64,000 nucleotides of DNA from Gammaproteobacteria bacterium (GTDB lineage: Bacteria; Pseudomonadota; Gammaproteobacteria; SZUA-140): assembly GCA_016218365.1 (NCBI GenBank), contig JACREF010000013.1, forward strand, positions 15,244 to 79,243. Direction: 5' to 3'. Made by a program: the position numbers and the translations under genes. Position 1 is the stretch's first letter; every line of letters begins with the position of its first letter. This document shows positions 20,484 through 45,306 of this stretch, piece after piece. Below the pieces are notes generated by a model that had not been told where the DNA came from, made no database searches, and saw nothing but the letters and a program-made list of their open reading frames with translations.

Positions 20484-21947
20484 ATGAGCGATGAGATCCT
20501 GATCAATGTCACCCCGCGCGAGACGCGCATTGCACTGGTCGAGAACGGCCTGCTGCAGGAGGTGTACGTCGAGCGCAGCAATCGCCGCAGCATGGTTGGC
20601 AATATCTATCTCGGCAGGGTGCAGCGGGTGTTGCCGGGCATCCAGGCCGCGTTCATCGATATCGATCATCAGCGCACCGCCTTTCTGCATGTCGCGGACA
20701 TCCATGTGCCGGACGGCGAGGGCGGTGAACGCAGCCAGGCCGGTGCACAGATCGCCGATCTGGTCCGCGAGGGTGATACGCTGCTGGTGCAGGTGATCAA
20801 GGACCCGCTGGGCAGCAAGGGCGCGCGGCTGACGACGCAGATCAGTCTGCCTTCCCGGTTTGTCGTGCTGATGCCGAACTCACGCAGCACCGGCATCTCG
20901 CAACGCATCGCCAGCGAGCAGGAGCGGCTGCGGCTGCGGGCGGCGCTGGAACAGATCACGAATGGGATCCTGGCCGGATACATCATCCGCACCGCTGCCG
21001 AAGGCTGCAGTGCCGCTGAACTGGCGGAGGATGTGATCTTTCTCAACAAGCTGTGGGCCGCGTTGCAGCAGGTGCTGGTCGGGGCGATCGCGCCAGTGGT
21101 GATTCATGATGTATTGCCGCTGGAGTGCCGCATGCTGCGTGACATCCCGGGGACCGGCATCGACAAGGTGCGTGTCGATTCGCGTGAAACCTGGAAAAGG
21201 TTGCAGGAATTCTCCCGGCAGTTCATCCCCGATCTGCTGCCGCGGATCGAGCATTACCCCGGGGCGCGGCCGATCTTTGATCTGTATTCAGTGGACGACG
21301 AGATCCAGAAGGCCTTGCAGCGTCGGGTCCAGCTCAAATCCGGAGGCCATCTGATCATCGACCAGACCGAGGCGATGACCACGATCGATGTCAATACCGG
21401 CGCCTTTGTCGGCAGCCGCAACCTCGAAGAGACGATCTTCAAGACCAACCTGGAGGCCTCCCAGGCCATTGCCCGCCAGTTGCGGTTGCGCAACCTGGGC
21501 GGCATCATCATTGTTGATTTCATTGACATGACCGACGAGGAACACAAACGTCAGGTGTTGCGCGCGCTGGAGAAGAGCCTGGAGAAGGATCGCGCCAAGC
21601 GCCATATCAGCGGCGTATCGCCGCTGGGTCTGGTGGAGATGACGCGGGAACGCACCCGCGAGAGTCTGGAGCATGTGTTATGCGAGAGCTGCCCGGTGTG
21701 CCGCGGGCGGGGTACCCTGAAGACCCGCGAGACCACCTGTTACGAGATCTTCCGCGAGATCCTGCGTGAAGAGCGGCAGTTTGATGCCCAGCAGTTTCTG
21801 GTACTGGCCTCGCAGGAGGTCATCAGCATGTTGCTTGATGAGGAATCCACCAGCCTGGCCGAGCTCGAGGCGTTCATCGGCAAGCCGGTCAGATTACAGG
21901 TCGAAGGCATGTATTCCCGGGAACAGTTTGACGTGGTCATGATGTGA
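20484..21947 (+). CDS. rng: Ribonuclease G
   Basis: ILINVTPRETR, GNIY.GRV, DVNTG, RLRNLGGII.VDFIDM. Confidence 0.96.
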   Translation: MSDEILINVTPRETRIALVENGLLQEVYVERSNRRSMVGNIYLGRVQRVLPGIQAAFIDIDHQRTAFLHVADIHVPDGEGGERSQAGAQIADLVREGDTLLVQVIKDPLGSKGARLTTQISLPSRFVVLMPNSRSTGISQRIASEQERLRLRAALEQITNGILAGYIIRTAAEGCSAAELAEDVIFLNKLWAALQQVLVGAIAPVVIHDVLPLECRMLRDIPGTGIDKVRVDSRETWKRLQEFSRQFIPDLLPRIEHYPGARPIFDLYSVDDEIQKALQRRVQLKSGGHLIIDQTEAMTTIDVNTGAFVGSRNLEETIFKTNLEASQAIARQLRLRNLGGIIIVDFIDMTDEEHKRQVLRALEKSLEKDRAKRHISGVSPLGLVEMTRERTRESLEHVLCESCPVCRGRGTLKTRETTCYEIFREILREERQFDAQQFLVLASQEVISMLLDEESTSLAELEAFIGKPVRLQVEGMYSREQFDVVMM

Positions 21948-24900
21948 CGAGCGGAGTAATACGCCAGCTCATTAACAGGATGTCGCTGATTCTGGCGCTG
22001 CTGATCATCGTCTGGGCGGTGGTGTACAGCATCGGGCGGTTGCTGTTTCCGCAGATCGTGCGCTATGACGACGAGATCATTAATCAGATCAGCATGGCGC
22101 TGCGACAGCCGGTCAGGGTGTCCAGCATCGAGGCGGAATGGAGCAGTGACAGTGGTCCGCATTTTACCTTCAGGGATATTCAATTTCTCGATCCGGTGAC
22201 CGGCAGCGTGGTCATCGAATTCAGCGAGGCCGGCGTGGCGATCGACACGCTGAGTTCGTTATTGACCATGACGCCGCGCCTCGGCGAGATGACGCTTTCC
22301 GGCATAGATCTGGCGCTGTTGCGCCGGGCCGATGGCTCGATTGTGCTGGAGGGCTTCCGTTCAGCATCGCATCAGCCGGATGAACTGCAGCGCATCATGG
22401 ACTGGCTGTTGTCACAGTCGCGGCTCGGCCTGCAGAACAGCCGCCTGACCTGGCGTGACGAGATGGCGCCGTCCTCACCGCGGGTCTTCGATGAGGTCAA
22501 TCTGGACCTGCGTAATTTCGGTCGTCGCCACCAGTTCAACGGTTCGGCGAATCTCCCGGCCAGTTTTGGCCAGCGGTTGTCGTTTGCACTGGATATCCGC
22601 GGCGATGTCATGGCGCCGCGGGGCTGGAGCGGCGAGACCTTTATCCACGGTGAAGGCCTGCAGCTCGGACCGCTGCTGGCCTGGCTGCCACCACAGGGGC
22701 TGCAGGTCATCAAGGGGGTGGTGGACGCTGATCTGTGGATGCAGTGGCGCGATGCTTCCGTGCAACGCATCGACGGCGATGTCTCGGCCTTTGGTGTGGT
22801 GTTGCAGTCAACCCTGCCGGGCGGCAGTGAGAAATCACTGAACGTCGATGCGTTGTCAGGCAGGTTGGCCTGGCAGTTGCGTGATCAGGGTTGGGAGGCG
22901 GCCCTCGACCACCTGGCGCTGGGTCGGGAGGGCCGGGTATGGCCGTACAGCCGCATCGATGTGGCGTCACATGCCAGCGCAGCGGGCCGGGACGTGGCAT
23001 TCACTGCCGACTACCTTGAGATCGAGGATCTGCGGGCCTTCGCTGCTCTGCTGCTGCCCGAGGACAGTCCGGTCCTGGCCAATCTGGACCAGGCCCGGCC
23101 CCGTGGCCAGCTGCGCGCGGTGCGCGGCACGGTGCTCAGCCAGGGTGAGACGCTGAACCTGTATCTGCACGGGGCATTCCAGGACCTGAGCCTTGAGGCC
23201 GGGAAAAAACTGCCGGCGCTGCAGGGCGCCGATGGCCGTTTTGCATTGCGAAACGACAGCGGCGTGCTGGAGCTCGACAGCGATGAGCTGACGGTCGAGT
23301 TGCCGCGGCTGTTTCGCACGCCGCTGGCGATCAGCCACGCCGGTGGCACCGTGTCCTGGGCCATCCATGACGGCGGGATCCAGCTGGCGCTGCAACAGGT
23401 GACCGCCGAGAACGATGACCTGCGTCTGGTCATCGACGGTGATGTGGATGTGTTGCCCGGCACGCATGGCGGGGCCTATGTCGATGTGCTGGGACGTTTT
23501 GATGTGCCCGAGCATGGTCTGCGTCGGCTTGGCCAGTATCTGCCGGCGGGCATCATGAAGCCGTCGCTGGTCAGGTGGCTGGAGCAGTCGGTGCAGGATG
23601 GCCGGGTGCCGTACGGGGCCCTGATACTGCGCGGCCATAGCGCCGATTTTCCGTTTGAGCGCGGCACCGGAAAATTTGAGGTGCGTTTTGGTGTGGCCAA
23701 CGGTGTGCTCAGCTACGATCGCAGCTGGCCACAGCTCACCGCGCTGGCCGGCGAGCTGGCCTTTACCGATCATACAATGGAGATCGTTATCGACGGCGGT
23801 CATTCGTTTGATTCCTCGATACGCCATGCCACCGTTACGATTGATGAACTGCGCGCCCACCCGCAGCAGCTGCGCATCAATGGTCATGTTGAGGGTGCAA
23901 GCGCAGATGTATTGCGTTATCTGGCCGACACCCCGCTGCAGACCCGGTTTGGGCATATGGTTGCGGACATGAAGGCCGAGGGGCGCAGCACGCTGGACCT
24001 TGACCTGCTGCTGGCGCCGGGGGGCGGAGCGCCGCCGCGGGTGACGGGCAGTCTTGGCATGCTGGGAAGTCAGCTGTTTATCGCCGACCGCGCGGTGGAC
24101 CTGCGTGATATCCGTGGCACGGTGACCTTTGGCGAAGACGGATTGAACGGCAAGGGACTGACGGCCAATGTACTGGGTGGCATGCCGGCCCGTTTTGATG
24201 TCTCTACCATCGCGCTGGCGGAGCGGCAGGTGACGGTCATCGAGGCCAGCGGCCGCGCCAGTGGCGACGATGTGCGGCGTCTGACCGGTCAGTCATTGTT
24301 CAAGTATCTGTCTGGCTCCACCGACTGGCAGGCGTCGGTGCATGTCCTGGGAGGTGAGCCGTCGCAGATCGACATCACGGTCAGATCGGATCTGCAGAAT
24401 ATGTCCTCGTCGCTGCCGTATCCGCTGACCAAGTCCGCCCGTCAGCAGCTGCCGCTGACGGTCAGCATGATATTCCCGCGCACGCTGGACAAGCCGGTGT
24501 ATTTCCGTTTGGGATCACTGCTCAATGGCGTGCTCGACATGGATGCACGTATGCATCTGGAACGGGGCGAGATCCGCAGCGGCGAGACCCCGGCGCAACT
24601 GCCGGGTGAGCCCGGGCTGAGGATCTCCGGTGATCTGGATGCCTTTTCCTATACGGGCTGGGGGCCGTACATCGATGAGATGCGCGGCGGTGGCCCCGGT
24701 GCCGGTGACGGCGCGGGCATCAGTCAGGTTGACATGCAGTTTGGTCTGTTCGAGATGTTCAACCACCCGTTTCGCAACGCCAGGTTGCGGGCCGTGCGTG
24801 CGGTCGGTGGCTGGCAGTTTGATATCGACAGTCTGGAGCTGGCAGGCCGGATACGCCTGCCGCTGGGGTCGACAGCGCCGATCACGCTGGATCTGGAGCG

Positions 24901-25804
24901 GCTGATCCTGTCATCCGCGGCGGGTGGCCCGGCCATCGGCGCCGCCAACAAGGGTCTCGACCCGCGGGATCTGCCGCCGCTGAAGATTCACAGCAAACAG
25001 TTCATCTTTGATGCCAGGAATTTCGGCGAACTGGATCTGGTGGCCAGCAAGCGTCCGTCCGGCGTTCATCTGGACAAGTTGCGGATGGCATCGCCAGCGA
25101 TGACAGTGGATGCCCGTGGTGACTGGCTGTATGTCAACGATGAGCACTTTTCGTCGTTCAGCATCGATTTTTCCAGCGAAAATTTCGGCAAGGCCCTGTC
25201 ATCTCTAGGTTATGCCGGCACCATCAAGGGCGGCGCCAGTGACATCAGCATTGTTGCGCGCTGGCCCGGTACGCCGACAGCCTTCGCACTGGACGGTCTG
25301 GATGGTACCATGCACATGAAGATCGTTGATGGTCATCTGCTGGATATTGAACCGGGTGCCGGGCGCTTGCTCGGTCTGCTCAGCCTGCAGGCGATGCCGC
25401 GCCGGCTGTTCCTGGATTTCCGGGATCTGTTCGAGAAGGGGCTGGCGTTTGACCGGATGAAGGGCAGCTTTACCTTTGCCAATGGTCAGGCAGTGACGTC
25501 TGATATGTATATGGATGCCCCGGCGGCACACATCGATGTCCGCGGCCGGGTCGGTCTGGTGGAGCAGGATTATGATCAGCGGGTGGTGGTGACGCCGCAG
25601 CTTACCACCGGCCTGCCGGTGGCCGGGGCGCTCGCCGGTGGCGTCGGGGTCGGCGCGGCGATCCTGGTCATTCAGGAGCTGCTGCAACCGCAGCTCAAGA
25701 AGGCCGGTCGCCTCGAATATCACATCACCGGGCCGTGGAACAATCCGGTGATCGAGCAGGTGGCTGGCGGTGGCCGGCCGGACAAGGGTAACAACAAGAG
25801 GTAG
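21944..25804 (+). CDS. yhdP: YhdP AsmA-like phospholipid bridge protein
   Basis: 1286 aa; N-terminal TM; YLP...WL motif; PGAGRLLGLLSL.A.PRRL.LDFRD.F..GL.FD and Y.ITGPW..P; follows rng. Confidence 0.92.
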   Translation: MTSGVIRQLINRMSLILALLIIVWAVVYSIGRLLFPQIVRYDDEIINQISMALRQPVRVSSIEAEWSSDSGPHFTFRDIQFLDPVTGSVVIEFSEAGVAIDTLSSLLTMTPRLGEMTLSGIDLALLRRADGSIVLEGFRSASHQPDELQRIMDWLLSQSRLGLQNSRLTWRDEMAPSSPRVFDEVNLDLRNFGRRHQFNGSANLPASFGQRLSFALDIRGDVMAPRGWSGETFIHGEGLQLGPLLAWLPPQGLQVIKGVVDADLWMQWRDASVQRIDGDVSAFGVVLQSTLPGGSEKSLNVDALSGRLAWQLRDQGWEAALDHLALGREGRVWPYSRIDVASHASAAGRDVAFTADYLEIEDLRAFAALLLPEDSPVLANLDQARPRGQLRAVRGTVLSQGETLNLYLHGAFQDLSLEAGKKLPALQGADGRFALRNDSGVLELDSDELTVELPRLFRTPLAISHAGGTVSWAIHDGGIQLALQQVTAENDDLRLVIDGDVDVLPGTHGGAYVDVLGRFDVPEHGLRRLGQYLPAGIMKPSLVRWLEQSVQDGRVPYGALILRGHSADFPFERGTGKFEVRFGVANGVLSYDRSWPQLTALAGELAFTDHTMEIVIDGGHSFDSSIRHATVTIDELRAHPQQLRINGHVEGASADVLRYLADTPLQTRFGHMVADMKAEGRSTLDLDLLLAPGGGAPPRVTGSLGMLGSQLFIADRAVDLRDIRGTVTFGEDGLNGKGLTANVLGGMPARFDVSTIALAERQVTVIEASGRASGDDVRRLTGQSLFKYLSGSTDWQASVHVLGGEPSQIDITVRSDLQNMSSSLPYPLTKSARQQLPLTVSMIFPRTLDKPVYFRLGSLLNGVLDMDARMHLERGEIRSGETPAQLPGEPGLRISGDLDAFSYTGWGPYIDEMRGGGPGAGDGAGISQVDMQFGLFEMFNHPFRNARLRAVRAVGGWQFDIDSLELAGRIRLPLGSTAPITLDLERLILSSAAGGPAIGAANKGLDPRDLPPLKIHSKQFIFDARNFGELDLVASKRPSGVHLDKLRMASPAMTVDARGDWLYVNDEHFSSFSIDFSSENFGKALSSLGYAGTIKGGASDISIVARWPGTPTAFALDGLDGTMHMKIVDGHLLDIEPGAGRLLGLLSLQAMPRRLFLDFRDLFEKGLAFDRMKGSFTFANGQAVTSDMYMDAPAAHIDVRGRVGLVEQDYDQRVVVTPQLTTGLPVAGALAGGVGVGAAILVIQELLQPQLKKAGRLEYHITGPWNNPVIEQVAGGGRPDKGNNKR

Positions 25805-25805
25805 C

Positions 25806-26627
25806 ATGATGAACTGCGTTGCAGTGATCCAGATGGCATCAGGCCCCAATGTCACACCGAACCTGAATGAAGCGGGACGGTTGCTGGACATGGCGGCCGG
25901 ACAGGGCGCCAAGCTGGCGGTATTGCCGGAGAATTTTGCCATCATGGGCATGGGACAGAACGATCTGGTCAAGGCCGGCGAGCATCTGGGGCGGGGGCCG
26001 ATCCAGGACTTTCTGGCGCGGCGCGCCCAGGAGCTCGGGCTGTGGATCGTCGGCGGCACGGTCCCGGTGCTGGCCTCTCCGGGCAAGGTGCATGCCGTGG
26101 CGATGCTGTTCAATCCCAGCGGCAAGGTCGTCGCGCACTATAACAAGATCCATCTGTTCGATGTGCAGATCGAGGAGACCGGCGAGGAGTATACCGAGTC
26201 GCAGACCGTGGAGCCTGGCAACAGCGTGGTGGTCGTCGATACACCGTTTGGCCGGCTGGGGCTGGCGGTGTGTTATGACCTGCGCTTTCCAGAGCTGTTC
26301 CGCTCGATGCTCGATGCCGGGGTGCAGCTGATTGCGGTGCCGTCGGCCTTCACCGCCATCACCGGCAAGGCCCACTGGGAGATCCTGGTGCGTGCCCGGG
26401 CGATCGAAAACCTCAGTTATGTGCTGGCCGCTGGCCAGGGTGGTTATCATTACAATGGCCGTGAGACCTTTGGCGACAGCATGATCGTCGACCCGTGGGG
26501 CAATGTGCTGAACCGCCATGCCAAGGGCAATGGCGTGGTGTGCGCAAACGTCGACATCCAGTACGTCGAGCGGGTCAGGGCCCAGTTCCCGGTGGTCGAG
26601 CATCGCCGCTTGCGCTGTGCCGAGTGA
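25806..26627 (+). CDS. Carbon-nitrogen hydrolase (Nit1-like deaminated glutathione amidase)
   Basis: LPENF, KIHLFDV, VCYDLRFPE, HWE.L.RARAIEN. Confidence 0.92.
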   Translation: MMNCVAVIQMASGPNVTPNLNEAGRLLDMAAGQGAKLAVLPENFAIMGMGQNDLVKAGEHLGRGPIQDFLARRAQELGLWIVGGTVPVLASPGKVHAVAMLFNPSGKVVAHYNKIHLFDVQIEETGEEYTESQTVEPGNSVVVVDTPFGRLGLAVCYDLRFPELFRSMLDAGVQLIAVPSAFTAITGKAHWEILVRARAIENLSYVLAAGQGGYHYNGRETFGDSMIVDPWGNVLNRHAKGNGVVCANVDIQYVERVRAQFPVVEHRRLRCAE

Positions 26628-26642: not shown

Positions 26643-27470
26643 ATGTCTGAGATGACAGGTTCATCCGAGACGCTGGTGCAGGTGCGCGGGCTGAAGTTCA
26701 GCTACGGGCGGCGCGTGATCTTTGACGGTGTCGACATGGATTTCCTGCGCGGCAAGGTGACGACGATCATGGGGCCGAGCGGCACCGGCAAGACCACGAT
26801 GCTGCGGATGATCGGCGGACAGCTGCGTCCGGATAGCGGTCAGGTCCATGTCGATGGGCAAAGTGTGCCGGAGCTGTCGCGTCGCCAGTTGTTTGAACTG
26901 CGCAAGAAGATGGGCATGATGTTCCAGACCGGCGCCCTGTTTACCAGCATGTCGGTGTTCGACAACGTCGCCTTCCCGGTGCGTGAGCATACCAATCTGC
27001 CGGAGCAGCTGATCCGGGATCTGGTGCTGATGAAGCTGGAGGCGGTGGGCCTGCGCGGTGCCCACAAGCTGATGCCGGCAGAGCTGTCGGGCGGCATGGC
27101 ACGGCGCGTGGCGCTGGCGCGGGCGATTGCGCTCGATCCGCTGATGATCATGTACGATGAGCCGTTTACCGGGCAGGACCCGATCACCGTCGGTGTCATC
27201 ATGCAGCTGATCCGCAAGATCAACGACACGCTGGGCTTGACCTCGATCATCGTGTCGCATGACGTGGCCGAGGTGTCAGCCATCTCTGACTACATTTATC
27301 TGATCTCCAATGGCAAGGTGATTGGCCATGGCGCGCCGTCGCAGCTGGCGGCCTCAGGCTCCGGCTGGGTCACGCAGTTCATGCACGGTCAGCCCGACGG
27401 CCCGGTGCCGTTCCATTATCCGGCCCCCGATTATGCCACCGACCTGCTCGACGGTGCCGGGCATGAATGA
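26643..27470 (+). CDS. mlaF: Mla ABC transporter ATPase
   Basis: GPSGTGKT, LSGGMARRVALARAIALDP, YDEPFTGQDP, GPVPFHYPA. Confidence 0.95.
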   Translation: MSEMTGSSETLVQVRGLKFSYGRRVIFDGVDMDFLRGKVTTIMGPSGTGKTTMLRMIGGQLRPDSGQVHVDGQSVPELSRRQLFELRKKMGMMFQTGALFTSMSVFDNVAFPVREHTNLPEQLIRDLVLMKLEAVGLRGAHKLMPAELSGGMARRVALARAIALDPLMIMYDEPFTGQDPITVGVIMQLIRKINDTLGLTSIIVSHDVAEVSAISDYIYLISNGKVIGHGAPSQLAASGSGWVTQFMHGQPDGPVPFHYPAPDYATDLLDGAGHE

Positions 27471-27488: not shown

Positions 27489-28271
27489 ATGCTGAACTGG
27501 TTGCAGAGACTGGGGCGTGGAGCGCTGGACAATTTCGCCGGTCTGGGGCGGGCCAGCCTGTTCCTCGGGCATACACTGAGCGGTCTGCCGTCCGTGCTGG
27601 CCCATCCACGGCGCGTCATCGCCCAGCTGCATTCCATTGGCGTGCTGTCGCTGGTGATCATCCTGGTGGCCGGGCTGGCGGTGGGCATGGTGCTGGGCCT
27701 GCAGATGTACAACACGCTGGTCGATTTCGGCGCCGAGGCCTCGCTGGGACCGGCGATCGCACTGACGCTGGTGCGTGAACTGGGCCCGGTGGTGGCGGCA
27801 CTGTTGTTCGCCGGGCGCGCCGGTTCGGCGTTGACGGCCGAGATCGGCCTGATGAAGGCCTCCGAGCAGCTGTCGGGGATGGAGATGATGGCGGTCGACC
27901 CGATGCTGCGCATCGTGGCACCACGGTTCATCGCCGGGGTGCTGGCCTTGCCCTTGCTGTCCGCGATCTTCAGCGCCGTCGGGGTGTTGGGCGGTTATTT
28001 TGTCGGGGTGGGTCTGCTGGGGGTCGATGACGGGGCGTTCTGGTCACAGATGCAGTCGCGGGTCGATTTCTATGATGATGTCCTCAACGGGGTCATCAAG
28101 AGCGTGGTGTTCGGCATAATTGTTTCCTGGGTGGCGCTGTTCCAGGGTTATGATACTGTACCCACGACCGAGGGCGTCAGCCGTTCGACGACCCGGACCG
28201 TGGTGTACGCCTCGCTGGCGGTGCTGGGGCTGGATTTCATATTAACGGCATTGATGTTCAGGGATGTTTAA
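27489..28271 (+). CDS. mlaE: Mla ABC transporter permease
   Basis: RELGPVVAALLFAGRAGSALTAEIGLMK; TTRTVV. Confidence 0.96.
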   Translation: MLNWLQRLGRGALDNFAGLGRASLFLGHTLSGLPSVLAHPRRVIAQLHSIGVLSLVIILVAGLAVGMVLGLQMYNTLVDFGAEASLGPAIALTLVRELGPVVAALLFAGRAGSALTAEIGLMKASEQLSGMEMMAVDPMLRIVAPRFIAGVLALPLLSAIFSAVGVLGGYFVGVGLLGVDDGAFWSQMQSRVDFYDDVLNGVIKSVVFGIIVSWVALFQGYDTVPTTEGVSRSTTRTVVYASLAVLGLDFILTALMFRDV

Positions 28272-28746
28272 TATGTTCAAGGTGCGGACCATTGAAATCA
28301 TGGTGGGTGTTTTTGTGGCGATCGGTATCGCTGCATTGTTCATGCTGGCGATGAAGGTCAGCAATCTGAGCAGTTTTGCCCAGCAGGAAGGTTTTCACGT
28401 GACGGCGAGGTTCCAGAATATCGGCGGCCTGAAGGTGCTGTCGCCGGTCAGCATGAGTGGCGTGCGCGTCGGCCGGGTGACGGCTATCCACTACGACCAG
28501 GGCAGTTACGAGGCCGAGGTCGACTTGGTCATCACCGGCAGTTATGACAAGATCCCGGTCGACAGCTCGGCCAGTATCTTCACCTCGGGGCTGCTCGGTG
28601 AGCAATACATCAGTATCGAACCGGGCGGAGAGGAGCGTTATCTGAAGCAGGGCGACCGGATCAAGTTGACACAATCCGCGCTGGTGCTGGAGCAGATGAT
28701 CGGGCAGTTCCTGTTCAGCAAGGCCGCAGGGGACACGACGCAGTGA
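28264..28746 (+). CDS. mlaD: MCE-domain protein MlaD (short, single MCE)
   Basis: F.NIGGLK..SPV..SGV.VGRV, TSGLLGEQYI, TQSALVLE..IGQFL. Confidence 0.95.
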   Translation: MFNMFKVRTIEIMVGVFVAIGIAALFMLAMKVSNLSSFAQQEGFHVTARFQNIGGLKVLSPVSMSGVRVGRVTAIHYDQGSYEAEVDLVITGSYDKIPVDSSASIFTSGLLGEQYISIEPGGEERYLKQGDRIKLTQSALVLEQMIGQFLFSKAAGDTTQ

Positions 28747-30098
28747 CCGGATGGCGTCAGCTGACAGTAACCGTGTTGTTGCTGGGCCCGTCGTCGCTGC
28801 TGACGGCGCAGGATTACACCATGGACCTGCCGCAGTTGATCGCACGTTCACTGAGCCAGGACCCGCGGATCGAGGAGCGCCGCCACAATGTGCAGGCCGC
28901 CCATGCATTGCTTGACGAGGTGGCGGGCCATGGCGGTGTGCACTATGATCTGACGACCTTTTTGGCGCTGACCACCGAGGTCAAGGGTGGGTTTTTTGAG
29001 CCCGGCACCTCGCCGCAGCTTCCGCGCTCCGATAAATATGACTGGAACGGCGTGACGCCCTGGGCCTCGCTGCAGTTCTCGGTCATCAAACCGCTGTATA
29101 CCTTCGGCAAGATTGAACACTATTCCGAGGCGGCGCGCGCCAACATCCAGGTCAAGGAACAGGACGTGCGGCTGCAGAACGGCGAGATCGTCTATGACGT
29201 CAGCCGCGCCTATTACGGCTATCTGGCGGCCCAGGACATCGTCATGTTGTTCGATGATGTGCAGGCGCGGCTCGACAAATCGATCGATGTTGTCACACGC
29301 TGGCTGGACAGCGGCAAGGGCAAGGTGCTGCAATCCGATCTGTATGCCTTGCAGACCGGGCGGGCCATCACCCAGCGTTACCGTGGTGATGCCGAGGCGA
29401 TCCGCAATACTGCGCTGGCCGGTCTGAAGACGCTGGCGGCGCTCGATACCGCCGATACGCTGACGCTGGCCGATACGCATATCGAACCCTTGCCGCTGCC
29501 GGAGACTGCGGCCGAGGTCTGGCAGCAGCAGGCGCTGCAGCGCCGGCCGGAGATGCATCAGCTTGAGGCGGGTCTGCGGGCACGACGCGAGCTGGTGGCT
29601 GCGAGCAAGGCCGATAGCCACCCCAATCTGTTTGCCGGTGTGGTGGGCATGGCCGCGCTGGCGCCGGGCCGCGACCGCCTCGATAACCCGTACATCACCG
29701 ATCCGTTCAATGACTATGGCGCCACGCCACTGCTGGGACTGCAATGGCACTGGGAACAGGGGGTGCAGCCGGCCAAGGTCGCCCAGGCCCGTGCCGAGCT
29801 GGATGCGCTGACCGAGAAATCGCGCTTTGCCCGGCGCGGCATCCCGTTCCAGGTCACTGAACAGTATAATAGCCTGCAGGCCTCCTATCAGGGGGTGCAG
29901 AACATGGCCGAGGCCAGCCGGGCCGGCCGGCGCTGGATGATCAGCACCTATACCAATTTCGAGGCCGGGATCGAGCAGGCCGAGGATGTGCTGACCGCAT
30001 TTCAGGGCTACGTGCTGGCGCACAGTGATTACCTACGCCTCGTCAACGATTACAATATGAATGTGATACGGATGAGGCAGGTAACGGGAGAGTATTGA
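28743..30098 (+). CDS. TolC/OEP-family outer membrane protein within the mla operon
   Basis: 451 aa with signal peptide. Two OEP-like halves: LQFSVIKPLYTFGK, V.RAYYGYL, ALQRRPE, HPNLF, LGLQW.W, and terminal helices with FEAG...DVL.A. GTGA overlap with mlaD and TGATG overlap with mlaC. Confidence 0.85.
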   Translation: MTGWRQLTVTVLLLGPSSLLTAQDYTMDLPQLIARSLSQDPRIEERRHNVQAAHALLDEVAGHGGVHYDLTTFLALTTEVKGGFFEPGTSPQLPRSDKYDWNGVTPWASLQFSVIKPLYTFGKIEHYSEAARANIQVKEQDVRLQNGEIVYDVSRAYYGYLAAQDIVMLFDDVQARLDKSIDVVTRWLDSGKGKVLQSDLYALQTGRAITQRYRGDAEAIRNTALAGLKTLAALDTADTLTLADTHIEPLPLPETAAEVWQQQALQRRPEMHQLEAGLRARRELVAASKADSHPNLFAGVVGMAALAPGRDRLDNPYITDPFNDYGATPLLGLQWHWEQGVQPAKVAQARAELDALTEKSRFARRGIPFQVTEQYNSLQASYQGVQNMAEASRAGRRWMISTYTNFEAGIEQAEDVLTAFQGYVLAHSDYLRLVNDYNMNVIRMRQVTGEY

Positions 30099-30706
30099 TG
30101 CTGGGGCGAATAGTGCTGGCGACATGTCTGGTGGCGGTGACGGGCAGTGGCCGCTGTGCCGGCAGCGATGCGCTGCAGCTGGTGCAGGACACCACGGCGC
30201 GGATGGTCCAGGCGCTGGACAAGAACCGCAAGGCCATTGTGGCCGATGAGAACCGTCTGTATCCGCTGGTTGAAGAGATCATCCTGCCGCATTTTGATTT
30301 TGAGCGCATGTCGCGCAGCGTACTGGGCAGATACTGGCGTGATCTGGCGCCCGAGGATCAGCAGCGATTCGTTGCCGAGTTCCGCACCTTGCTGGTCCGC
30401 ACCTATGCCACCGCGATGCTGGAGTATTCCGGACAGAAGATTGTCTATCTGCCCGTGCGCGCCAAAGCGGAAGACGTCGAGGTGACGATCCAGACCCGAG
30501 TGCAACAGGCCAGCGGTTTCCCGATCCCGATCGACTATTTCCTGTATCAGGACAGTGGGCGCTGGCGGGTCTATAACATGTCAATCGATGATGTCGATCT
30601 GGTGCTGAATTACCGCACCTCGTTTGCCAGGACCATCCGTGAAGACGGCAACGTCAGCGGTCTGATCGCCAAACTGCATGAAAGCAACCAGCAGGCCATG
30701 CAATGA
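30098..30706 (+). CDS. mlaC: Periplasmic phospholipid shuttle MlaC (Ttg2D)
   Basis: ILPHFDFERMSRSVLGRYWR, F..LLVRTY, WRVYN...DV.LV.NYR.SF. Confidence 0.93.
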   Translation: MLGRIVLATCLVAVTGSGRCAGSDALQLVQDTTARMVQALDKNRKAIVADENRLYPLVEEIILPHFDFERMSRSVLGRYWRDLAPEDQQRFVAEFRTLLVRTYATAMLEYSGQKIVYLPVRAKAEDVEVTIQTRVQQASGFPIPIDYFLYQDSGRWRVYNMSIDDVDLVLNYRTSFARTIREDGNVSGLIAKLHESNQQAMQ

Positions 30707-30996
30707 GTGAGGTGGTGCTGGAACAACAGCCGGACGGTTACCGGGTCCGCGGTGAACTGAGTTTTGATACCGTGGCGCAGCTGCTGGGGCGCAGTCCGGT
30801 GCACGGCGCGCAGCTGCGGGTCGATCTGGGCGGGGTCAGTCGCACCGACAGTGCCGGTCTAGCCTTGCTGGTCAGCTGGATGCGCGAGGCGCGCCATGCC
30901 GGCTGTGATATCCGGTTTAGCAACGTGCCGCCACAGCTGCTGGCGATCGCCCGGGTCAGCGGCTTCGACCGGCTGTTGCCGGTGGCGGCGCCATGA
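30703..30996 (+). CDS. mlaB: STAS-domain protein MlaB
   Basis: GEL.FDT, DL.GV.R.DSAGLALL, P.QL..IA..SG. Confidence 0.92.
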   Translation: MSEVVLEQQPDGYRVRGELSFDTVAQLLGRSPVHGAQLRVDLGGVSRTDSAGLALLVSWMREARHAGCDIRFSNVPPQLLAIARVSGFDRLLPVAAP

Positions 30997-31071
30997 TCCC
31001 ATCACCTGCGGGAATCTGGTACCATGCAGCTGCCCGGTGCGCCGGGTCTTACCAGGCGGGCGGTGGACGGA

Positions 31072-31314
31072 ATGCATGCATCAGACATCAAGACCCTGAT
31101 TGAGGCCGGCCTGCCCGGCAGTCAGGCGGTGGTACGCGGTGATGACGGGGTCCATTTCGAGGCCGACATCGTTTGTGACTGTTTTTCCGGCCAGGGGATG
31201 CTGGCCCAGCACCGCATGGTCTATGCCACGCTGGGTCCGCGGATGGGCGGTGAGATCCACGCCCTGTCGTTGCGGACATTTACCCCGGCAGAATGGCAGC
31301 AGCGTGGCCGCTGA
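31072..31314 (+). CDS. ibaG: BolA/IbaG-family protein
   Basis: DGVHF, HRMVY, EIHALSL.T.TP; located before murA. Confidence 0.88.
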   Translation: MHASDIKTLIEAGLPGSQAVVRGDDGVHFEADIVCDCFSGQGMLAQHRMVYATLGPRMGGEIHALSLRTFTPAEWQQRGR

Positions 31315-31360: not shown

Positions 31361-32620
<1,260 letters not shown>

Positions 32621-41703: not shown

Positions 41704-43658
41704 CTAAAGCAAATTCATTATTTTTTACTTTTCTCTGGCTCGCCCTGATGCTAAGTGGTTGTGGCGGTGGAGTGACCGGTGTTTTGAGTGGTGCGAATAG
41801 CGTGGTCAGCGGGGTGGTCAACAGTGTCCCGCCGGGCAAATGTCCAAGCGGCGGCATTACCGTCAATTCAGGGATAGATTCGAATAGCAACAAGATCCTG
41901 GATGCTTCGGAAATCTCAACCACACAATATGTTTGCCATGGCACGAATGGGTCAGCAGGGTTGACATCATTGGTGTCTGCGACGGATGAGCCAAGTGGCG
42001 CCAATTGCGCAGACGGCGGCAAGAAGATCAATGTTGGTTTGGACGAAAACAGCAACAATGTCCTGGATGCGAGTGAAATAGTCTCAACGGCCTACATATG
42101 TAACGGATCGAAAGCGGCCAATGGCACTAATGGCACTGACGGCACGAATGGAATAAACGGTGCAAACGGCAGGGATGGCCACAATAGCTTGGTCAGCATA
42201 GTGCCGGAACCGGTTGATTCCTTCTATTGTAAGTATGGCGGCAATAAGGTCAGTAGTGGCCTGGATTCGAATGCTAATGGCGCGCTTGATGATCCTGAAG
42301 AAGTGATGGCCAGTTATTACGTTTGTAATGGTGCGCCGGGTGCTGCGGGGGCTGCCGGAGAGACGGGCGCCACAGGTCCGGCCGGAGCTACAGGCGCGAC
42401 TGGTCCGGCGGGTCCTGCGGGGCCAGGTATAACGTGGGTCGATGTCACAGGCGCATCAGTTCAGGCGGAATCAAACAAGGGCTATATAGCCAACAGTGGT
42501 TCTCAAGTGACGATAACGCTGCCTCGGTCGCCGCTTTTTGGTGATCTTGTCCAGATATCCGGTGCTGGCGCAGGTGGATGGAAGGTGGCGCAAAATGACG
42601 GCCAGTCAATCATAACCAAGAACGTTAGTATTGATTACGAACAATTATGGAAGTCACGAGAGTCTCTGAGGGCATGGAATGTTATAGCGATGTCTTCTGA
42701 TGGGGTTAAGGTAGTTGCTGCAGTCAGGGGAGGGCATATCTACACATCGGATGATTCCGGCGTGACATGGACTGAGAGGCAGCCCATTCCATCCGGAGGC
42801 TACTGGACGGCTGTTACCTCATCGTCTGATGGATCGATGCTGACTGCTGCTACAAATGGACCTGAAGGCATATTCATCTCCTCGGATGCTGGAGCGACTT
42901 GGACGCATATTCTGGGGTCCCCTTCATCGATAGGGGCGCTTGCGGCATCCGCAGATGGAACAAAATTAGTTGCGACGGTGGGTGAGCAAAATAACCCAAT
43001 ATATACATCCGTGGATGCTGGCCTTAATTGGATAGCTCATAATGTTTCTGGGTTATCATTTTACTCGGTCGCGTCCTCATCCGATGGATCCCGTCTTTTG
43101 GCGACATGTAAGACGCAAGATATTCAACCTATTAGCATGCTGTGTACGTCTGCAGATTCCGGAGCTTCTTGGGTGACGCGAGAATCAGATAGAAACTGGT
43201 CATCAGTGGCATCATCTTCTGACGGCTCAAAACTCGTAGCAACTACTTCCGGAGGGAGCATATATACCTCCTCAGATTATGGCGTGAGCTGGGCACCGCA
43301 TGGACGCAGTGGCCTTTGGATGTCAGTGGCATCATCGTCAGACGGTACAAAACTCGTCGCAGCTGAGCAGGGTTTTGGCGGTTATATGTATACCTCGAAT
43401 GATTCAGGGAACAACTGGACAGTACGCTCATCGAATCGGTTATGGCGCTCAGTAGCAACTTCCTCAGACGGCACACATTTGGCCGCCATAGAAGAGAATG
43501 GACATATTTATACTTCGCTTCCATTCAGTGATGGCGCTACAACAATAGGGCCTGCAGGGGCAATCATCGGTGCCCAATATGACACCGCCGATCTCCAATA
43601 CATTGGCAACAATCAGTTCATGGTGCGTGGCTATATGGGTAATTTGTTGATTCAGTAA
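41682..43658 (+). CDS. Surface lipoprotein with three Cys-pair/DxNxN repeats, collagen-like segments and BNR/beta-propeller repeats; 5' end altered by the MITE
   Basis: Lipobox LSG-C; three C..GG...G.D.N.N..LD..E...Y.C.G repeats; GXY runs; about seven W..VASSSDG.KLVA...IYTS.D.G..W repeats. Confidence 0.8.
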   Translation: MRINQSIPKANSLFFTFLWLALMLSGCGGGVTGVLSGANSVVSGVVNSVPPGKCPSGGITVNSGIDSNSNKILDASEISTTQYVCHGTNGSAGLTSLVSATDEPSGANCADGGKKINVGLDENSNNVLDASEIVSTAYICNGSKAANGTNGTDGTNGINGANGRDGHNSLVSIVPEPVDSFYCKYGGNKVSSGLDSNANGALDDPEEVMASYYVCNGAPGAAGAAGETGATGPAGATGATGPAGPAGPGITWVDVTGASVQAESNKGYIANSGSQVTITLPRSPLFGDLVQISGAGAGGWKVAQNDGQSIITKNVSIDYEQLWKSRESLRAWNVIAMSSDGVKVVAAVRGGHIYTSDDSGVTWTERQPIPSGGYWTAVTSSSDGSMLTAATNGPEGIFISSDAGATWTHILGSPSSIGALAASADGTKLVATVGEQNNPIYTSVDAGLNWIAHNVSGLSFYSVASSSDGSRLLATCKTQDIQPISMLCTSADSGASWVTRESDRNWSSVASSSDGSKLVATTSGGSIYTSSDYGVSWAPHGRSGLWMSVASSSDGTKLVAAEQGFGGYMYTSNDSGNNWTVRSSNRLWRSVATSSDGTHLAAIEENGHIYTSLPFSDGATTIGPAGAIIGAQYDTADLQYIGNNQFMVRGYMGNLLIQ

Positions 43659-44038
43659 AAGAAGATTCAGGTTGGGGTGGAATTCCTTTTAAGGAACGCT
43701 GACATAATCCCCGGCTGCAATGACCAGCTGATTGTTGCAAGACGCGCGGAGTGGCGCATCGCATCGGAAGATAGAATATCTCTGAAAAATCCCGACGCTC
43801 CGGGTCAATAAACAAGGCAGTCCGGCATGGCCAGGAGGCCGCTGCCGCGCCATGTGCAAGCAGGATGTCACGCGCAGCCTTCGTTACATCAAGGAGAAAT
43901 GGCGCAACCGCTGGAAGAACTGGCGCGGCGGCGCCTGTCGCCGCACTCCATATCGATCAAGATGATCAGCCCCAGAATATCTTTCAGTCCGACGGCCTGG
44001 TCGCTTGTTAATCCCTCCATCCTCTCTATCTCTATACC

Positions 44039-44398
44039 CTAAACGAGCACAATCTGCGACCGCATGCTATAGAGTACGAATAACACCTCTTCCTGTTCCC
44101 GCTGGCCGATATTGTTCTTCTGCAGGGCGGCCAGGGCATCATTGAGCACGGCCATGAATTCGTGGGCGGAGATATTCATCCCCTTATGCGCAGCCAACAT
44201 ATCCTTGCCCTTGTAGACATCGGGACCGCCGGTGCCAGTAATAAAAAAGGTGGCAGCGGCATTTTTTATCTTGGCGAGATCGCTGTTGGCAAACCGCGTG
44301 GCGATGGCCTTGTTTGCCATATGATTGTCCACGACGTCGTTCGCCAGTCGGGTGATGCCTTCAGCGCCGCCCAGGCGTTCAAAAAGTGATTGGCCCAT
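44039..44398 (-). CDS. Group I-like truncated (2/2) hemoglobin
   Basis: SLFERLGG, GGP..Y.G.DM...H.GM.I...EF with proximal His; AGGAG RBS. Confidence 0.9.
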   Translation of the reverse strand: MGQSLFERLGGAEGITRLANDVVDNHMANKAIATRFANSDLAKIKNAAATFFITGTGGPDVYKGKDMLAAHKGMNISAHEFMAVLNDALAALQKNNIGQREQEEVLFVLYSMRSQIVLV

Positions 44399-44489
44399 GA
44401 TTTATCTCCTATGTTGATAAAAAACTCACTGCAATAATGAAATGGTGGTTGATGCCTTAATAAGCTAGCATTGTGCATAGAGGCCGGGA

Positions 44490-44506
44490 AGTACAGAATC
44501 TGTAGT
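44490..44506. promoter_or_regulatory. Candidate operator between the globin and HxlR genes
   Basis: AGTACAGAATCTGTAGT contains the perfect IR TACAGA-A-TCTGTA in the divergent intergenic region. Confidence 0.5.
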
Positions 44507-44550
44507 GGCCGCAGCAATGATCAGCAGCTGGACTCAACAGGAGGGATTCA

Positions 44551-45258
44551 ATGATTTCGTATGGTCAATTCTGCCCGTTGGCGCAGGCTACCCAACTGCT
44601 GTGCGAGCGCTGGACCTTGATCGTCGTGCGCGAATTGATCGCGGGCAGCACGCGATTCAATCAGTTGAAAAAGGGTGTGCCGCTGATGTCGCCATCATTA
44701 TTGTCAACCCGTCTCAAGCAACTGGCGGAGGCCGGGGTGATCGAGATCACCGGCAGCAAGGGGAACTATACCTATACGCTGACGCCTGCCGGGCGCGAGT
44801 TGCGTCCGCTCATCGAGCTGCTGGGGGCGTGGGGCCATCGCTGGGCGCCGTCAAACTTAAACAAGGGCGATCTGGATGCCGGTTTATTGATGTGGGACAT
44901 GCGGCGCACCGTGGACCCTGCGGTGTTCCCCAGGCAACGCATCGTCGTGCAATTCGAATATCCGGATGCGCCCAAAGGGGAGCGTGACTGGTGGCTGGTC
45001 ACTGAAAACGGTGAGATCGATCTGTGTTTGAATGATCCCGGATACGATGTTGATATCGTCATCACGTGCTCGCTGAAGACGATGTCGGCAGTCTGGGTCC
45101 GCCAGCAGAGCTTTCGTGATGCAGTGAAAAAGGGTGATATCAAGGTGTCGGGCGACTCCAGGCTGACCAGCAAGCTGCAGGACTGGTTGCGTGCCAGCCC
45201 GCTGGCCCGGCTCGGCTCGATCGGTAAAATACCAGAATTGGCGTGGAGCGCTGGTTGA
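44551..45258 (+). CDS. HxlR/DUF24 winged-helix regulator with C-terminal SCP2-like domain
   Basis: YGQFCPLA...ERWTL..REL..G..RFN.L..G.P..S..LL..RLK.L, Y.LTPAG.EL; C-terminal WWL...DLC..DPG.D.D...I.V.GD. Confidence 0.9.
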   Translation: MISYGQFCPLAQATQLLCERWTLIVVRELIAGSTRFNQLKKGVPLMSPSLLSTRLKQLAEAGVIEITGSKGNYTYTLTPAGRELRPLIELLGAWGHRWAPSNLNKGDLDAGLLMWDMRRTVDPAVFPRQRIVVQFEYPDAPKGERDWWLVTENGEIDLCLNDPGYDVDIVITCSLKTMSAVWVRQQSFRDAVKKGDIKVSGDSRLTSKLQDWLRASPLARLGSIGKIPELAWSAG

Positions 45259-45306
45259 GCTGGCAGCGAGCATCTCAGCAATAACCGTCCCATTTCCCCG
45301 GCTGTA

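Follow-up and report, generated by a model that had tools for sequence, protein, structure and literature searches.

The window analysed here, a 64,000-nt stretch of contig JACREF010000013.1 in assembly GCA_016218365.1 (Gammaproteobacteria bacterium, SZUA-140), contains an operon whose open reading frames and Pfam and NCBIfam matches give the order mlaF-mlaE-mlaD-OEP-mlaC-mlaB-bolA-murA, followed by his genes, where OEP denotes a 451-aa OEP/TolC-fold protein. An earlier reading made from the sequence alone (the sequence-only reading) had proposed the same order. All coordinates are positions in the window.

21944..25804, + strand: yhdP, AsmA-like intermembrane lipid-transport protein, upstream neighbour given as context only (Pfam YhdP, 5.8e-264)
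25770..26627, + strand: carbon-nitrogen hydrolase, conserved upstream operon flank (Pfam CN_hydrolase, 1.2e-53)
26643..27470, + strand: mlaF, ABC ATPase (NCBIfam MlaF, 1.8e-120, 401 bits; Pfam ABC_tran)
27489..28271, + strand: mlaE, permease (Pfam MlaE, 1.4e-71; NCBIfam perm_MlaE_1, 399.9 bits against a cutoff of 315)
28264..28746, + strand: mlaD, short single-MCE protein of 160 aa (TIGR04430, 188.1 bits against a cutoff of 135)
28743..30098, + strand: Mla-linked TolC-fold OEP gene, 451 aa (Pfam OEP PF02321, 1.6e-25)
30095..30706, + strand: mlaC, periplasmic lipid shuttle (Pfam MlaC, 1.3e-53)
30703..30996, + strand: mlaB, STAS-domain partner of MlaF (Pfam STAS_2, 5.4e-17)
31024..31314, + strand: bolA, conserved downstream flank (Pfam BolA)
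31361..32620, + strand: murA, conserved downstream flank (identity of MurA 74-78% in relatives, whichever operon type they have)

The OEP gene overlaps both of its neighbors, as the sequence-only reading had claimed and as can be read directly in the DNA. Its GTG start at 28743 overlaps the mlaD stop codon TGA at 28744-28746 (GTGA), and its own TGA stop codon (30096-30098) shares bases with the start of mlaC, a TTG at 30095 or else an ATG at 30098 (TGATG). MlaD is the sole MCE protein of the genome, with one PF02470 match genome-wide. The yhdP/CN-hydrolase flank recurs at close orthologous loci, and the CN-hydrolase gene lies upstream of mlaF in OEP-type and MlaA-type relatives alike. The claimed absence of a nearby membrane-fusion adaptor holds as well, in that the eight adaptor matches of the genome all fall off the window's contig.

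The OEP protein passed the profile check proposed for it, scoring 90.4 bits against the Pfam OEP profile (cutoff 22) over two tandem stretches, with no other Pfam match. It lies far under the NCBIfam cutoffs for both TolC (TIGR01844; 49.4 versus 225.15 bits) and NodT (TIGR01845; 29.1 versus 210.05 bits). The AF2 monomer model (pLDDT 87, pTM 0.78) adopts the topology of a TolC protomer, with strands at residues 67-78, 104-119, 295-306 and 324-334 and helices at residues 123-190, 197-231, 344-407 and 413-448; the protein presumably forms a trimer. The top Foldseek matches of the model are TolC, ST50, OprM, OprN, CusC and SilC, with TM scores of 0.70-0.75 and a probability of 1.00 at only 13-18% identity to these solved structures, and a TolC-MlaC complex is absent from the PDB fold matches. 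Three further features are predicted within the protein.

28743..28811, + strand: predicted signal peptide, residues 1-23, MTGWRQLTVTVLLLGPSSLLTAQ/D, lacking a lipobox cysteine (by eye from the translation)
28977..29051, + strand: predicted extracellular loop 1, residues 79-103, between model strands 67-78 and 104-119
29661..29711, + strand: predicted extracellular loop 2, residues 307-323, with the motif P-x-R-D...D-P-F-N, running into LGL-x-W

Because the predicted signal peptide has no cysteine, the OEP protein is probably not a lipoprotein, unlike MlaA and OprM-type OMFs. It does not belong to the MlaA/VacJ family (PF04333), as it has only OEP matches and no lipobox; it is an analogue of MlaA that stands outside the MlaA family. 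In the alignment columns of loop 1, R95-x-D97 is near-invariant, as is W107 just past the loop. Loop 2 is among the most conserved regions of the protein (0.79 in alignment A1) and is 17 aa long in 91 of 92 sequences, compared with 4-6 aa for its counterpart in housekeeping TolC. Its motif is still discernible in a fused protein (P0212) that is only 26% identical.

The mlaD-OEP-mlaC arrangement proved to be conserved far outside the source genome. Among 114 fetched orthologous loci (96 non-redundant at 99% identity), mlaC lies directly 3′ of the OEP gene in 112, the remaining two stopping at a contig edge, and mlaD lies directly 5′ in 96. The 18 loci without mlaD upstream keep the OEP-mlaC pair beside murA and have mlaFED elsewhere; in one of them (L130), the pair is divergent from kdsD-lptA-lptB-rpoN. 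The order mlaFED-OEP-mlaC is also found in all three genomes examined from other Pseudomonadota classes, at 29-35% OEP identity, and at 11 of 12 loci of a Polyangia-like soil clade, at ∼26% identity, with the twelfth locus starting at the OEP gene itself. Since its gene stays close to mlaC and mlaFED, and occurs together with them, in lineages far apart from one another, the OEP protein qualifies operationally as an Mla component.

Natural OEP::MlaC fusions occur in the Polyangia-like clade in at least 24 protein clusters (24 of the 120 clusters listed carry both PF02321 and PF05494). These clusters are 629-718 aa long and 58-100% identical, lie on contigs of up to 1.48 Mb and come from four sources, one of them named Polyangia. 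Pfam confirmed the fusion in P0212, P0273 and P0282, and also in open reading frames read from the DNA of two loci (L228 and L246). Elsewhere in the soil clade the two proteins look like the products of separate neighboring genes, since no single reading frame covers the whole match at nine of the 14 soil loci examined; at the other five, one frame does. Two candidates were set aside: the long open reading frame of L234 bears the MlaC domain only, and P0195, a PEPCK fragment joined to an OEP, looks like a gene-calling join. Across phyla, the OEP gene is genetically locked to mlaC.

These data favor MlaC as the partner of the OEP protein over MlaD, the other contact suggested in the sequence-only reading, because the pair is kept without mlaFED at 18 of the 114 loci and because the OEP::MlaC fusion clusters, at least 24 in number, compare with a single cluster that joins an OEP to MlaD. 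Complex prediction of OEP residues 24-451, as a monomer, with MlaC residues 24-203 gave a score of 0.54, against 0.00 for the best of three controls; the three runs share at least 88% of contacts, with a partner pLDDT of at least 80. Among benchmark pairs, 58 of 80 solved complexes reach the mark used for this score, as do two of 110 mismatched pairs, with only seven of the 80 solved complexes, plus both mismatches, passing at 0.60 or below, and these counts hold only roughly here because our own alignments were used. The prediction thus lends weak support to the pairing. The MlaC proteins of MlaA-type relatives are 36-54% identical to that of the window, and those of OEP-type relatives 46-51%; judged by percent identity, MlaC does not diverge according to its outer-membrane partner.

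The lack of mlaA/vacJ in the window, pointed out in the sequence-only reading, extends to the genome. Pfam PF04333 gave no MlaA candidate in the window or in the source genome (2.26 Mb, 97% complete), and tblastn searches with six MlaA proteins of relatives found no mlaA remnant in that genome (best E 0.005). The best tblastn match falls in a 756-aa FAD-oxidase/Fe-S open reading frame and was rejected as a divergent or decayed mlaA. In a class sample of 400 genomes scored by both OEP and MlaA searches, MlaA is present in four of the 41 OEP carriers and in 327 of the 359 non-carriers. Five further carriers from the source family include one with MlaA, and three carriers from other classes include none. 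The proposed test for anti-correlation therefore returned a strong signal, with MlaA in 5/49 pooled carriers versus 327/359 class non-carriers; those five show that the OEP protein and MlaA are not strictly exclusive. Thirty-two genomes have neither protein, and of the ten probed with the MlaC profile, five lack MlaC and five have it (G002, G009, G063, G101 and G110, several of them fragmented or 84-86% complete).

The class-wide contrast is inflated by common ancestry. In the source family, the MlaA-type genera have a collinear CN-hydrolase-mlaFEDCB operon that is missing only the OEP gene. Identity to the window's proteins in these genera is 68-77% for MlaE and mostly 74-77% for MurA, the same as in the OEP-type genera (MurA spans 66-78% over all same-family genomes). 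The idea that the OEP-type operon arrived in the family as a foreign whole-operon cassette was rejected, as MlaE, MlaF, MlaD, the CN-hydrolase flank and MurA are equally similar in both types. The expectation in the sequence-only reading that vacJ usually sits between mlaD and mlaC stands only in part: the main same-family operon beside bolA-murA is mlaFEDCB with an empty mlaD-mlaC gap, and the order mlaE-mlaD-mlaA-mlaC is seen only in the second, more divergent operon of one genome (G006). On the MlaFED tree the OEP state takes three changes, at least two of them forced by supported branches, and the hypothesis of just one OEP clade fails an AU test (p = 0.00086). A single ancient event behind the whole anti-correlation is partly rejected by this test and by the at least two transitions within one family. 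Independent transitions are nonetheless few (two pairs on supported branches, three on all branches); MlaA differs in the expected direction in a mean of 1.6 of them and never in the opposite direction, and with two or three pairs a sign test cannot reach significance (p 0.5-1). In otherwise orthologous operons, the OEP gene alternates with MlaA.

The phylogeny proposed for comparison with efflux TolCs sets the Mla-linked proteins apart as one clade, subtended by a branch of length 3.08 (SH-aLRT 100). A housekeeping TolC is also present in 35 of 36 carrier genomes, and the Mla-linked OEP is very probably not the efflux duct of these cells. We compared conservation in the Mla-linked OEP and in housekeeping TolC over one set of 23 genomes.

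Extracellular loop 1: Mla-linked OEP 0.37, housekeeping TolC 0.06
Extracellular loop 2: Mla-linked OEP 0.66, housekeeping TolC 0.25
Periplasmic tip 1: Mla-linked OEP 0.43, housekeeping TolC 0.90
Periplasmic tip 2: Mla-linked OEP 0.68, housekeeping TolC 1.00

The pattern of constraint is reversed relative to an efflux duct, with the surface loops conserved and the periplasmic tips relaxed. The source genome encodes eight adaptors and five OEPs, and only two of the adaptors adjoin an OEP; given this surplus, an orphan adaptor elsewhere in the genome may use the Mla-linked channel. In two distant clade members the OEP is joined to inner-membrane domains that handle lipids, in P0240 to MMPL with a sterol-sensing domain and in P0254 to LPG_synthase_TM.

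We consider it likely, with a probability of roughly 0.7, that the TolC-fold OEP is dedicated to a variant of the Mla pathway in which it replaces MlaA, together with the porin, as the outer-membrane station for MlaC. The neighborhood, the anti-correlation and the separate clade all support the earlier proposal that the protein replaces or supplements MlaA in this role. MlaC would dock on the periplasmic part of the OEP and swap phospholipid with it, the conserved and enlarged surface loops would provide a lipid-handling site at the outer leaflet, and MlaC would pass the lipid on to MlaFEDB, the sequence of steps known from classical retrograde transport. A membrane-fusion adaptor would play no part. 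The lumen of TolC is aqueous, which counts against a lipid station of this kind.

The same components could also work in the opposite direction, with MlaFEDB and MlaC delivering phospholipid, or a different lipid, to the outer membrane, where the TolC-like channel would insert or release it, a reading that we regard as unlikely. The linkage evidence, comprising the loci, the fusions and the soil clade, fits such an exit duct equally well, and the MMPL/sterol-sensing (P0240) and LPG_synthase_TM (P0254) fusions belong to the same clade. As far as is known, TolC-family ducts are outward conduits in every characterized system, and for some of them the exported substrate is a lipid, one example being the heterocyst glycolipids that leave through DevBCA-HgdD. 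Which way Mla moves lipid is itself treated as debated in parts of the literature ('Forward or backward...', PMC10212509; bioRxiv 10.1101/388546). Against export, the reciprocity with MlaA argues that the OEP does the job of MlaA, which in the portions of the E. coli literature covered is assigned as retrograde transport. Moreover, the adaptor that would seal a duct onto the inner-membrane complex is missing on the window's contig, the regions of the tips that dock adaptors are relaxed, and MlaC, MlaD and MlaE are ordinary proteins, orthologous to those of MlaA-type relatives.

It is less probable still that the TolC-like trimer is only a scaffold, acting as OmpC/F do for MlaA, with the true lipid extractor being an unrecognized small protein, without homology to MlaA, encoded elsewhere. 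E. coli MlaA does work embedded in a porin trimer, and E. coli TolC has recently gained a lipoprotein partner, YbjP, each according to portions of the sources (for YbjP, bioRxiv 10.1101/2025.03.19.644130; PDB 9v52 and 9tg4). However, an extra conserved operon gene occurs in 0/114 loci screened with the window's ten proteins, and both its direct fusion to MlaC and the conservation of its surface loops suggest that the OEP does the work itself. Finally, an ordinary efflux or secretion duct that happens to ride in the mla operon, its adaptor and pump being encoded at other sites and its link to MlaA loss being an accident of shared ancestry, would suit the OEP family and TolC fold, the excess of adaptors (8) over OEPs (5), the weak statistics of independent transitions and the tolC beside mlaEFD in Veillonella, for which the portion of the study covered claims no Mla role (PMC10665443), but we hold it to be very improbable in view of an mlaC adjacency kept down to 26% identity and across phyla, the recurrent OEP::MlaC fusions, the separate clade with its very long branch, the regular TolC in 35 of 36 carriers, the relaxed adaptor-docking tips and constrained surface loops, and the reciprocal gene swap inside one family.

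Tentatively, and at somewhat less than even odds, the reading of the OEP as a replacement for MlaA may extend to the whole TolC-fold clade. Its members would then be the non-efflux, outer-membrane lipid-handling end of Mla-type transporters: a trimeric barrel whose conserved surface loops take up or deliver outer-leaflet phospholipid and which hands the lipid to MlaC without an adaptor, with the shuttle in some lineages tethered for good to the channel within one polypeptide. This would be an old alternative to MlaA, and possibly older than it, because the OEP is found in several Pseudomonadota classes and in Myxococcota-like lineages.

Textbook accounts of lipid asymmetry in the outer membrane center on Mla. 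How the pathway works at the outer membrane is understood only for MlaA-OmpC/F, with MlaA taken as the partner of MlaC in models and reviews; yet roughly a tenth of the genomes sampled from a large proteobacterial class combine MlaC with a TolC-fold protein in the operon and have no MlaA. Full-text literature searches found no paper tying a TolC-like protein to MlaC or to MlaA replacement; one seeming match, in bioRxiv 10.1101/2025.03.19.644130, turned out to be the FastTree option '-mlacc', and in the portion of the Brucella Mpc paper covered (PMC12436622), TolC appears in the reference list only. Genomes with MlaC and no MlaA may already feature in Supplementary Dataset 1 and Supplementary Figs. 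11-12 of PMC10665443, which would bear on the novelty of the distribution and not on the TolC link. The OEP-MlaC arrangement points to an undescribed way of maintaining outer-membrane lipid order. If the OEP is the outer-membrane station, the TolC/OMF superfamily gains its first role beyond adaptor-coupled efflux and secretion, and there is a second, structurally unrelated way to move phospholipid out of or into an asymmetric membrane. The OEP and MlaA would offer a natural comparison for mechanism and direction, and the natural OEP::MlaC fusions would be ready-made stable complexes for cryo-EM and lipid-transfer assays. The annotation "TolC family protein" for Mla-linked OEP genes would need correcting, as would surveys that score MlaA-negative genomes as having an incomplete Mla system.

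Compared with MlaA (VacJ, PF04333) and OmpC/OmpF, the OEP protein is likewise encoded with mlaFEDCB and would likewise have MlaC as its partner, and in G006 it is mlaA itself that sits between mlaD and mlaC. The two proteins share no homology, the OEP being a TolC-type α/β barrel protomer and MlaA a ring, and the OEP has no lipobox. A porin partner is not implied for it. A TolC-like build would also place the OEP ∼100 Å into the periplasm, unlike MlaA. With the TolC/OMF family (PF02321), the OEP shares the two OEP repeats and the protomer of four strands and long helices. It differs from that family in having no adjacent adaptor or pump gene, in being linked or fused to MlaC and in its extracellular loops, which measure 25 and 17 aa as against 14 and 6.

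A comparable arrangement is the mlaEFD-tolC-tamB cluster of Veillonella parvula and other Negativicutes, where, in the portion of the study covered, a tolC homologue directly follows mlaEFD in genomes without MlaA (PMC10665443). MlaD there is long, with an outer-membrane β-barrel of its own, and neither MlaC nor MlaB is present (Grasekamp et al. 2023, PMC10665443); in the same portion it is MlaD that is given the bridging role, and TolC serves solely as a marker for fractionation. The contrast with Veillonella that the sequence-only reading drew agrees with what this part of the paper reports. The window does not encode a minimal system of that type, as it has a 160-aa MlaD bearing one MCE domain, together with both MlaC and MlaB.

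Chloroplast TGD1-3, with the β-barrel TGD4, is another MCE system with an outer-membrane partner other than MlaA. Further such partners are PqiC for PqiB and MpcA in Brucella, the latter as described in part of its report (PMC12436622). These systems set a precedent, since they show that MCE/ABC lipid transporters can have different partners at their outer-membrane end. Their partners are lipoproteins or LptD-like barrels that touch a periplasm-spanning MCE needle, whereas in the present system MlaD is short, the shuttle is soluble and the third element is a protein with the TolC fold.

We observed the OEP gene, which encodes a 451-aa TolC-fold protein, between mlaD and mlaC in a continuous series of forward-strand genes.

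Genes of the mla operon and its surroundings (window coordinates, strand, product)
21944-25804, +, yhdP, AsmA-like
25770-26627, +, carbon-nitrogen hydrolase
26643-27470, +, mlaF
27489-28271, +, mlaE
28264-28746, +, mlaD, 160 aa
28743-30098, +, OEP-family gene, 451 aa, both repeats of Pfam PF02321
30095-30706, +, mlaC
30703-30996, +, mlaB
31024-31314, +, bolA
31361-32620, +, murA, with the his genes next

The order mlaF-mlaE-mlaD-OEP-mlaC-mlaB-bolA-murA-his and the two gene overlaps claimed in the sequence-only reading are borne out by the open reading frames, the profile matches and the DNA, where the GTG start of OEP overlaps the mlaD stop (GTGA) and the mlaC start overlaps the OEP stop (TTGATG). 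A short way 5′ of the operon, yhdP encodes an AsmA-like intermembrane phospholipid transporter and occupies the same place in the closest orthologous loci, so that two lipid-trafficking systems adjoin. The MlaC of the window (30095-30706) scores 89 bits against the hopanoid-associated NCBIfam model HpnM, more than its 70 bits against E. coli-type MlaC, although each score is under its cutoff. Further along, G+C content falls to 0.52-0.57 at ~42000-50000, compared with 0.60-0.65 elsewhere, and the GC skew flips sign near 46-48 kb; this stretch is possibly an island, or its origin may differ from that of its surroundings.

The OEP protein matches PF02321 over both repeats with 90.4 bits, as the sequence-only assignment to this family had implied, and falls far under the cutoffs of both the NCBI TolC family (49 bits, cutoff 225) and NodT (29 bits, cutoff 210). 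Its N terminus reads as a predicted signal peptide without a lipobox cysteine. An AlphaFold2 model of the monomer, built on a 24-sequence alignment (pLDDT 87, pTM 0.78), has the layout of a TolC protomer, with four strands and four long helices, and Foldseek matches it to TolC, ST50, OprM, OprN, CusC and SilC with TM scores of 0.70-0.75 at only 13-18% identity. On this model, OEP is a genuine TolC-fold protein.

The absence of mlaA/vacJ noted for the window extends to the whole assembly (2.26 Mb, 33 contigs, 97% complete), in which a profile search for MlaA (PF04333) returned no candidates while control genomes gave signal. A tblastn search of this genome with six MlaA proteins of relatives gave a best E of 0.005, and that match was rejected as mlaA, as it sits inside an FAD-oxidase/Fe-S gene. 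MlaD is the only MCE protein of the genome. Five OEP genes are present, the Mla-linked one scoring lowest against the family model, together with eight membrane-fusion adaptor genes. Two of these adaptors directly adjoin other OEP genes and orphan adaptors are among the rest; none of the eight lies on the contig of the window, which both confirms and widens the earlier remark that the window has none.

The arrangement is conserved well beyond this genome. Six relatives from the same GTDB family have OEP orthologues (51-58% identical) in the order mlaFED-OEP-mlaCB(-bolA-murA). Scanning a single genome for each species yielded 284 stretches encoding an OEP relative; the titles of the 80 that were kept are mostly uncultured Gammaproteobacteria, Thiotrichaceae, Chromatiaceae and Candidatus Tenderia, and also include Sulfuricella, Sulfuriferula, Sulfurimicrobium and Nitrosomonadales. 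In a neighbourhood screen of 114 loci (96 non-redundant at 99% identity), mlaC lies directly 3′ of OEP in 112, the remaining two stopping at a contig edge, and mlaD lies directly 5′ in 96. The 18 loci without an upstream mlaD still pair OEP with mlaC, adjoining murA, and in one locus (L130) the pair is divergent from kdsD-lptA-lptB-rpoN; the four such loci placed in the OEP tree form a single subclade. As the pairing also holds where mlaD is not upstream, MlaC is the most constant neighbour of OEP. Of 400 genomes scored in an even sample of the class, 41 have an orthologue, single copy in each (E ≤ 1e-86, 40-58% identity), and these 41 span about two dozen GTDB families. An even phylum sample added homologues in three genomes of other classes (29-35% identity), all three in mlaF-E-D-OEP-mlaC. 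Among 1.84 billion cluster representatives searched, 142 matched at E ≤ 1e-30 and 728 at E ≤ 1e-10.

The anti-correlation with MlaA that the sequence-only reading had raised is also seen. By a hand tally from the full lists, with the 400 class genomes scored by both searches, MlaA accompanies OEP in 4 of the 41 class-sample carriers (G141, G164, G263 and G299; confirmed), in one (G024) of five further same-family carriers and in none of three carriers in other classes, or 5 of 49 carriers in all, versus 327 of 359 class-sample non-carriers, the other 32 lacking it. The five genomes with both proteins count against a reading of replacement. Among ten probed genomes with neither MlaA nor OEP, five also lack MlaC (G026, G060, G062, G092 and G103; 91-100% complete). 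One of these, G092, shares its GTDB family with the OEP carrier G289.

Class-wide counts are inflated by shared ancestry, and so we compared genomes within one family. The MlaA-type genera of the window's family have a carbon-nitrogen hydrolase gene followed by mlaF-E-D-C-B, with nothing between mlaD and mlaC, and their mlaA is at an unlinked locus. Their MlaE is 68-77% and their MurA mostly 74-77% identical to those of the window (MurA 66-78% over all same-family genomes), and the OEP-type genera give the same identities. Equal identities and collinear order indicate that the operons are orthologous and differ by the OEP gene alone, with the unlinked mlaA flipping with it. A tree of MlaF, MlaE and MlaD requires three changes of OEP state, of which supported branches force two or more, and the AU test rejects a single OEP clade (p = 0.00086), a group named after the tree was seen. 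The independent pairs number only two or three; on average MlaA changes in the expected direction in 1.6 of these, and in none does it go in reverse, which cannot reach significance. No partner-specific divergence of MlaC is visible by percent identity between OEP-type and MlaA-type relatives, a point against OEP standing in for MlaA. Several relatives of the same family have a further, divergent mla operon whose MlaE is 45-48% identical (G006:C40, G012:C59, G002:C72, G015:C193, G021:C116, G010:C111 and G022:C28); in G006 its order is mlaE-mlaD-mlaA-mlaC. In three of them the MlaE match is interrupted by an in-frame TGA or TAG, so those copies may be pseudogenes.

The Mla-linked OEP is probably not the efflux duct of the cell. 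A housekeeping TolC is present in 35 of 36 carriers (30-52% identity); that of the window's genome (L001:757-2109) has a divergent gene next to it. In a tree of 58 OEP sequences, the Mla-linked proteins form a separate clade, split off by a branch of length 3.08 with an SH-aLRT of 100, from a small outgroup consisting of only eleven efflux proteins (ten housekeeping TolCs and one paralogue from the window's genome). This phylogeny against efflux TolCs bears out the distinction that the sequence-only reading depended on. On the OEP side of the branch are the Gammaproteobacteria clade, the Mla-linked OEPs of other classes, fused and unfused Polyangia-like forms, 14 unannotated representatives and two OEPs joined to lipid-handling domains. 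The Mla-linked OEP and the housekeeping TolC also differ in where they are constrained, measured as mean pairwise column identity over the same 23 genomes (control model of the housekeeping TolC, pLDDT 88.5).

Regional constraint (Mla-linked OEP; housekeeping TolC)
Overall: 0.53; 0.46
Extracellular loop 1: 0.37 (25 aa); 0.06 (14 aa)
Extracellular loop 2: 0.66 (17 aa); 0.25 (6 aa)
Periplasmic tip 1: 0.43; 0.90
Periplasmic tip 2: 0.68; 1.00

In the OEP of the window, the predicted surface loops 1 and 2 are residues 79-103 and 307-323. Loop 2 of the Mla-linked OEP is fixed at 17 aa in 91 of 92 sequences. Whereas the efflux duct is constrained at its adaptor-docking sites and free at the cell surface, the Mla-linked OEP shows the reverse. 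This inverted pattern of conservation would fit work at the outer leaflet with no classical adaptor, although the orphan adaptors in the window's genome point against an adaptor-free reading.

In one lineage OEP and MlaC are joined in a single chain. In P0212, a cluster representative of 677 aa, an OEP part at the N terminus is followed by a low-complexity linker of ~55 residues and then by a MlaC domain at the C terminus. With P0212 as the query, at least 24 of the 120 listed clusters have both Pfam domains (629-718 aa, 58-100% identical); they derive from NCBI, JGI, ENA and Logan, on contigs of up to 1.48 Mb, and one is named Polyangia bacterium, with several labelled by JGI 'outer membrane protein TolC/ABC-type transporter MlaC component'. 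A Pfam check bore out the two domains in P0273 and P0282, as well as in single ORFs read from the DNA of two loci (L228 and L246). L234 was rejected as a fusion, its spanning ORF containing the MlaC domain only. Metagenome loci of this Polyangia-like clade read mlaE-mlaD-OEP-MlaC in 11 of 12, the twelfth starting at OEP; in 9 of 14 loci no single frame spans the whole match, so there the two parts look like separate adjoining genes. At ~26% identity, P0212 and the OEP of the window have in common the loop-2 motif P-G-R-D ... D-P-x-N ... L-G-L-x-W and the motif K/Q-P-L-Y-T-F-G-K. TolC-fold chains have their C terminus outside the helical barrel, close to the equatorial region, and in the OEP model helix 413-448 ends the chain; a fused MlaC would therefore hang by a flexible tether on the periplasmic outside of the barrel.

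Other joined forms were seen. P0320 (648 aa), with an N-terminal MlaD (MCE) and a C-terminal OEP part, is a one-member cluster that could be a read-through of overlapping genes, and as a single sequence is weak evidence for MlaD-OEP joining. P0240 (1230 aa) and P0254 (822 aa), distant members of the clade, are each predicted to be one protein that joins OEP to lipid-handling inner-membrane domains, namely MMPL with a sterol-sensing domain in P0240 and LPG_synthase_TM in P0254. Whether real fusions or products of gene calling, they suggest a link between the wider OEP clade and lipid transport.

Complex prediction with one mature OEP chain and mature MlaC on matched 92-row alignments gave a score of 0.54 (runs 0.53, 0.54 and 0.56), the best of three controls being 0.00, with at least 88% of contacts agreeing between runs and a partner pLDDT of at least 80. 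Of 80 solved complexes 58 reach the benchmark mark, as do 2 of 110 mismatched pairs; with scores ≤0.60, only 7 of those 80 and both mismatches reach it. These counts apply roughly, as our own alignments were used. The model weakly supports an OEP-MlaC contact.

Together, these data establish that a distinct TolC-fold clade is integral to mla operons, a component both ancient and widespread; its strongest tie is to MlaC, and it alternates with MlaA. We infer that OEP is the outer-membrane station of the Mla pathway, on which MlaC would dock and whose enlarged, conserved surface loops may help to handle lipid at the outer leaflet. In the literature searched as full text, a TolC-like protein tied to MlaC or to MlaA loss was not found. 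The closest paper, PMC10665443, in its main text surveys only MlaA-F in 1083 genomes, describes a tolC after mlaEFD in Negativicutes and ascribes bridging to a long MlaD. The system in the window differs from the one described there: instead of a long, bridging MlaD, it has an MlaD of 160 aa with both MlaC and MlaB present.
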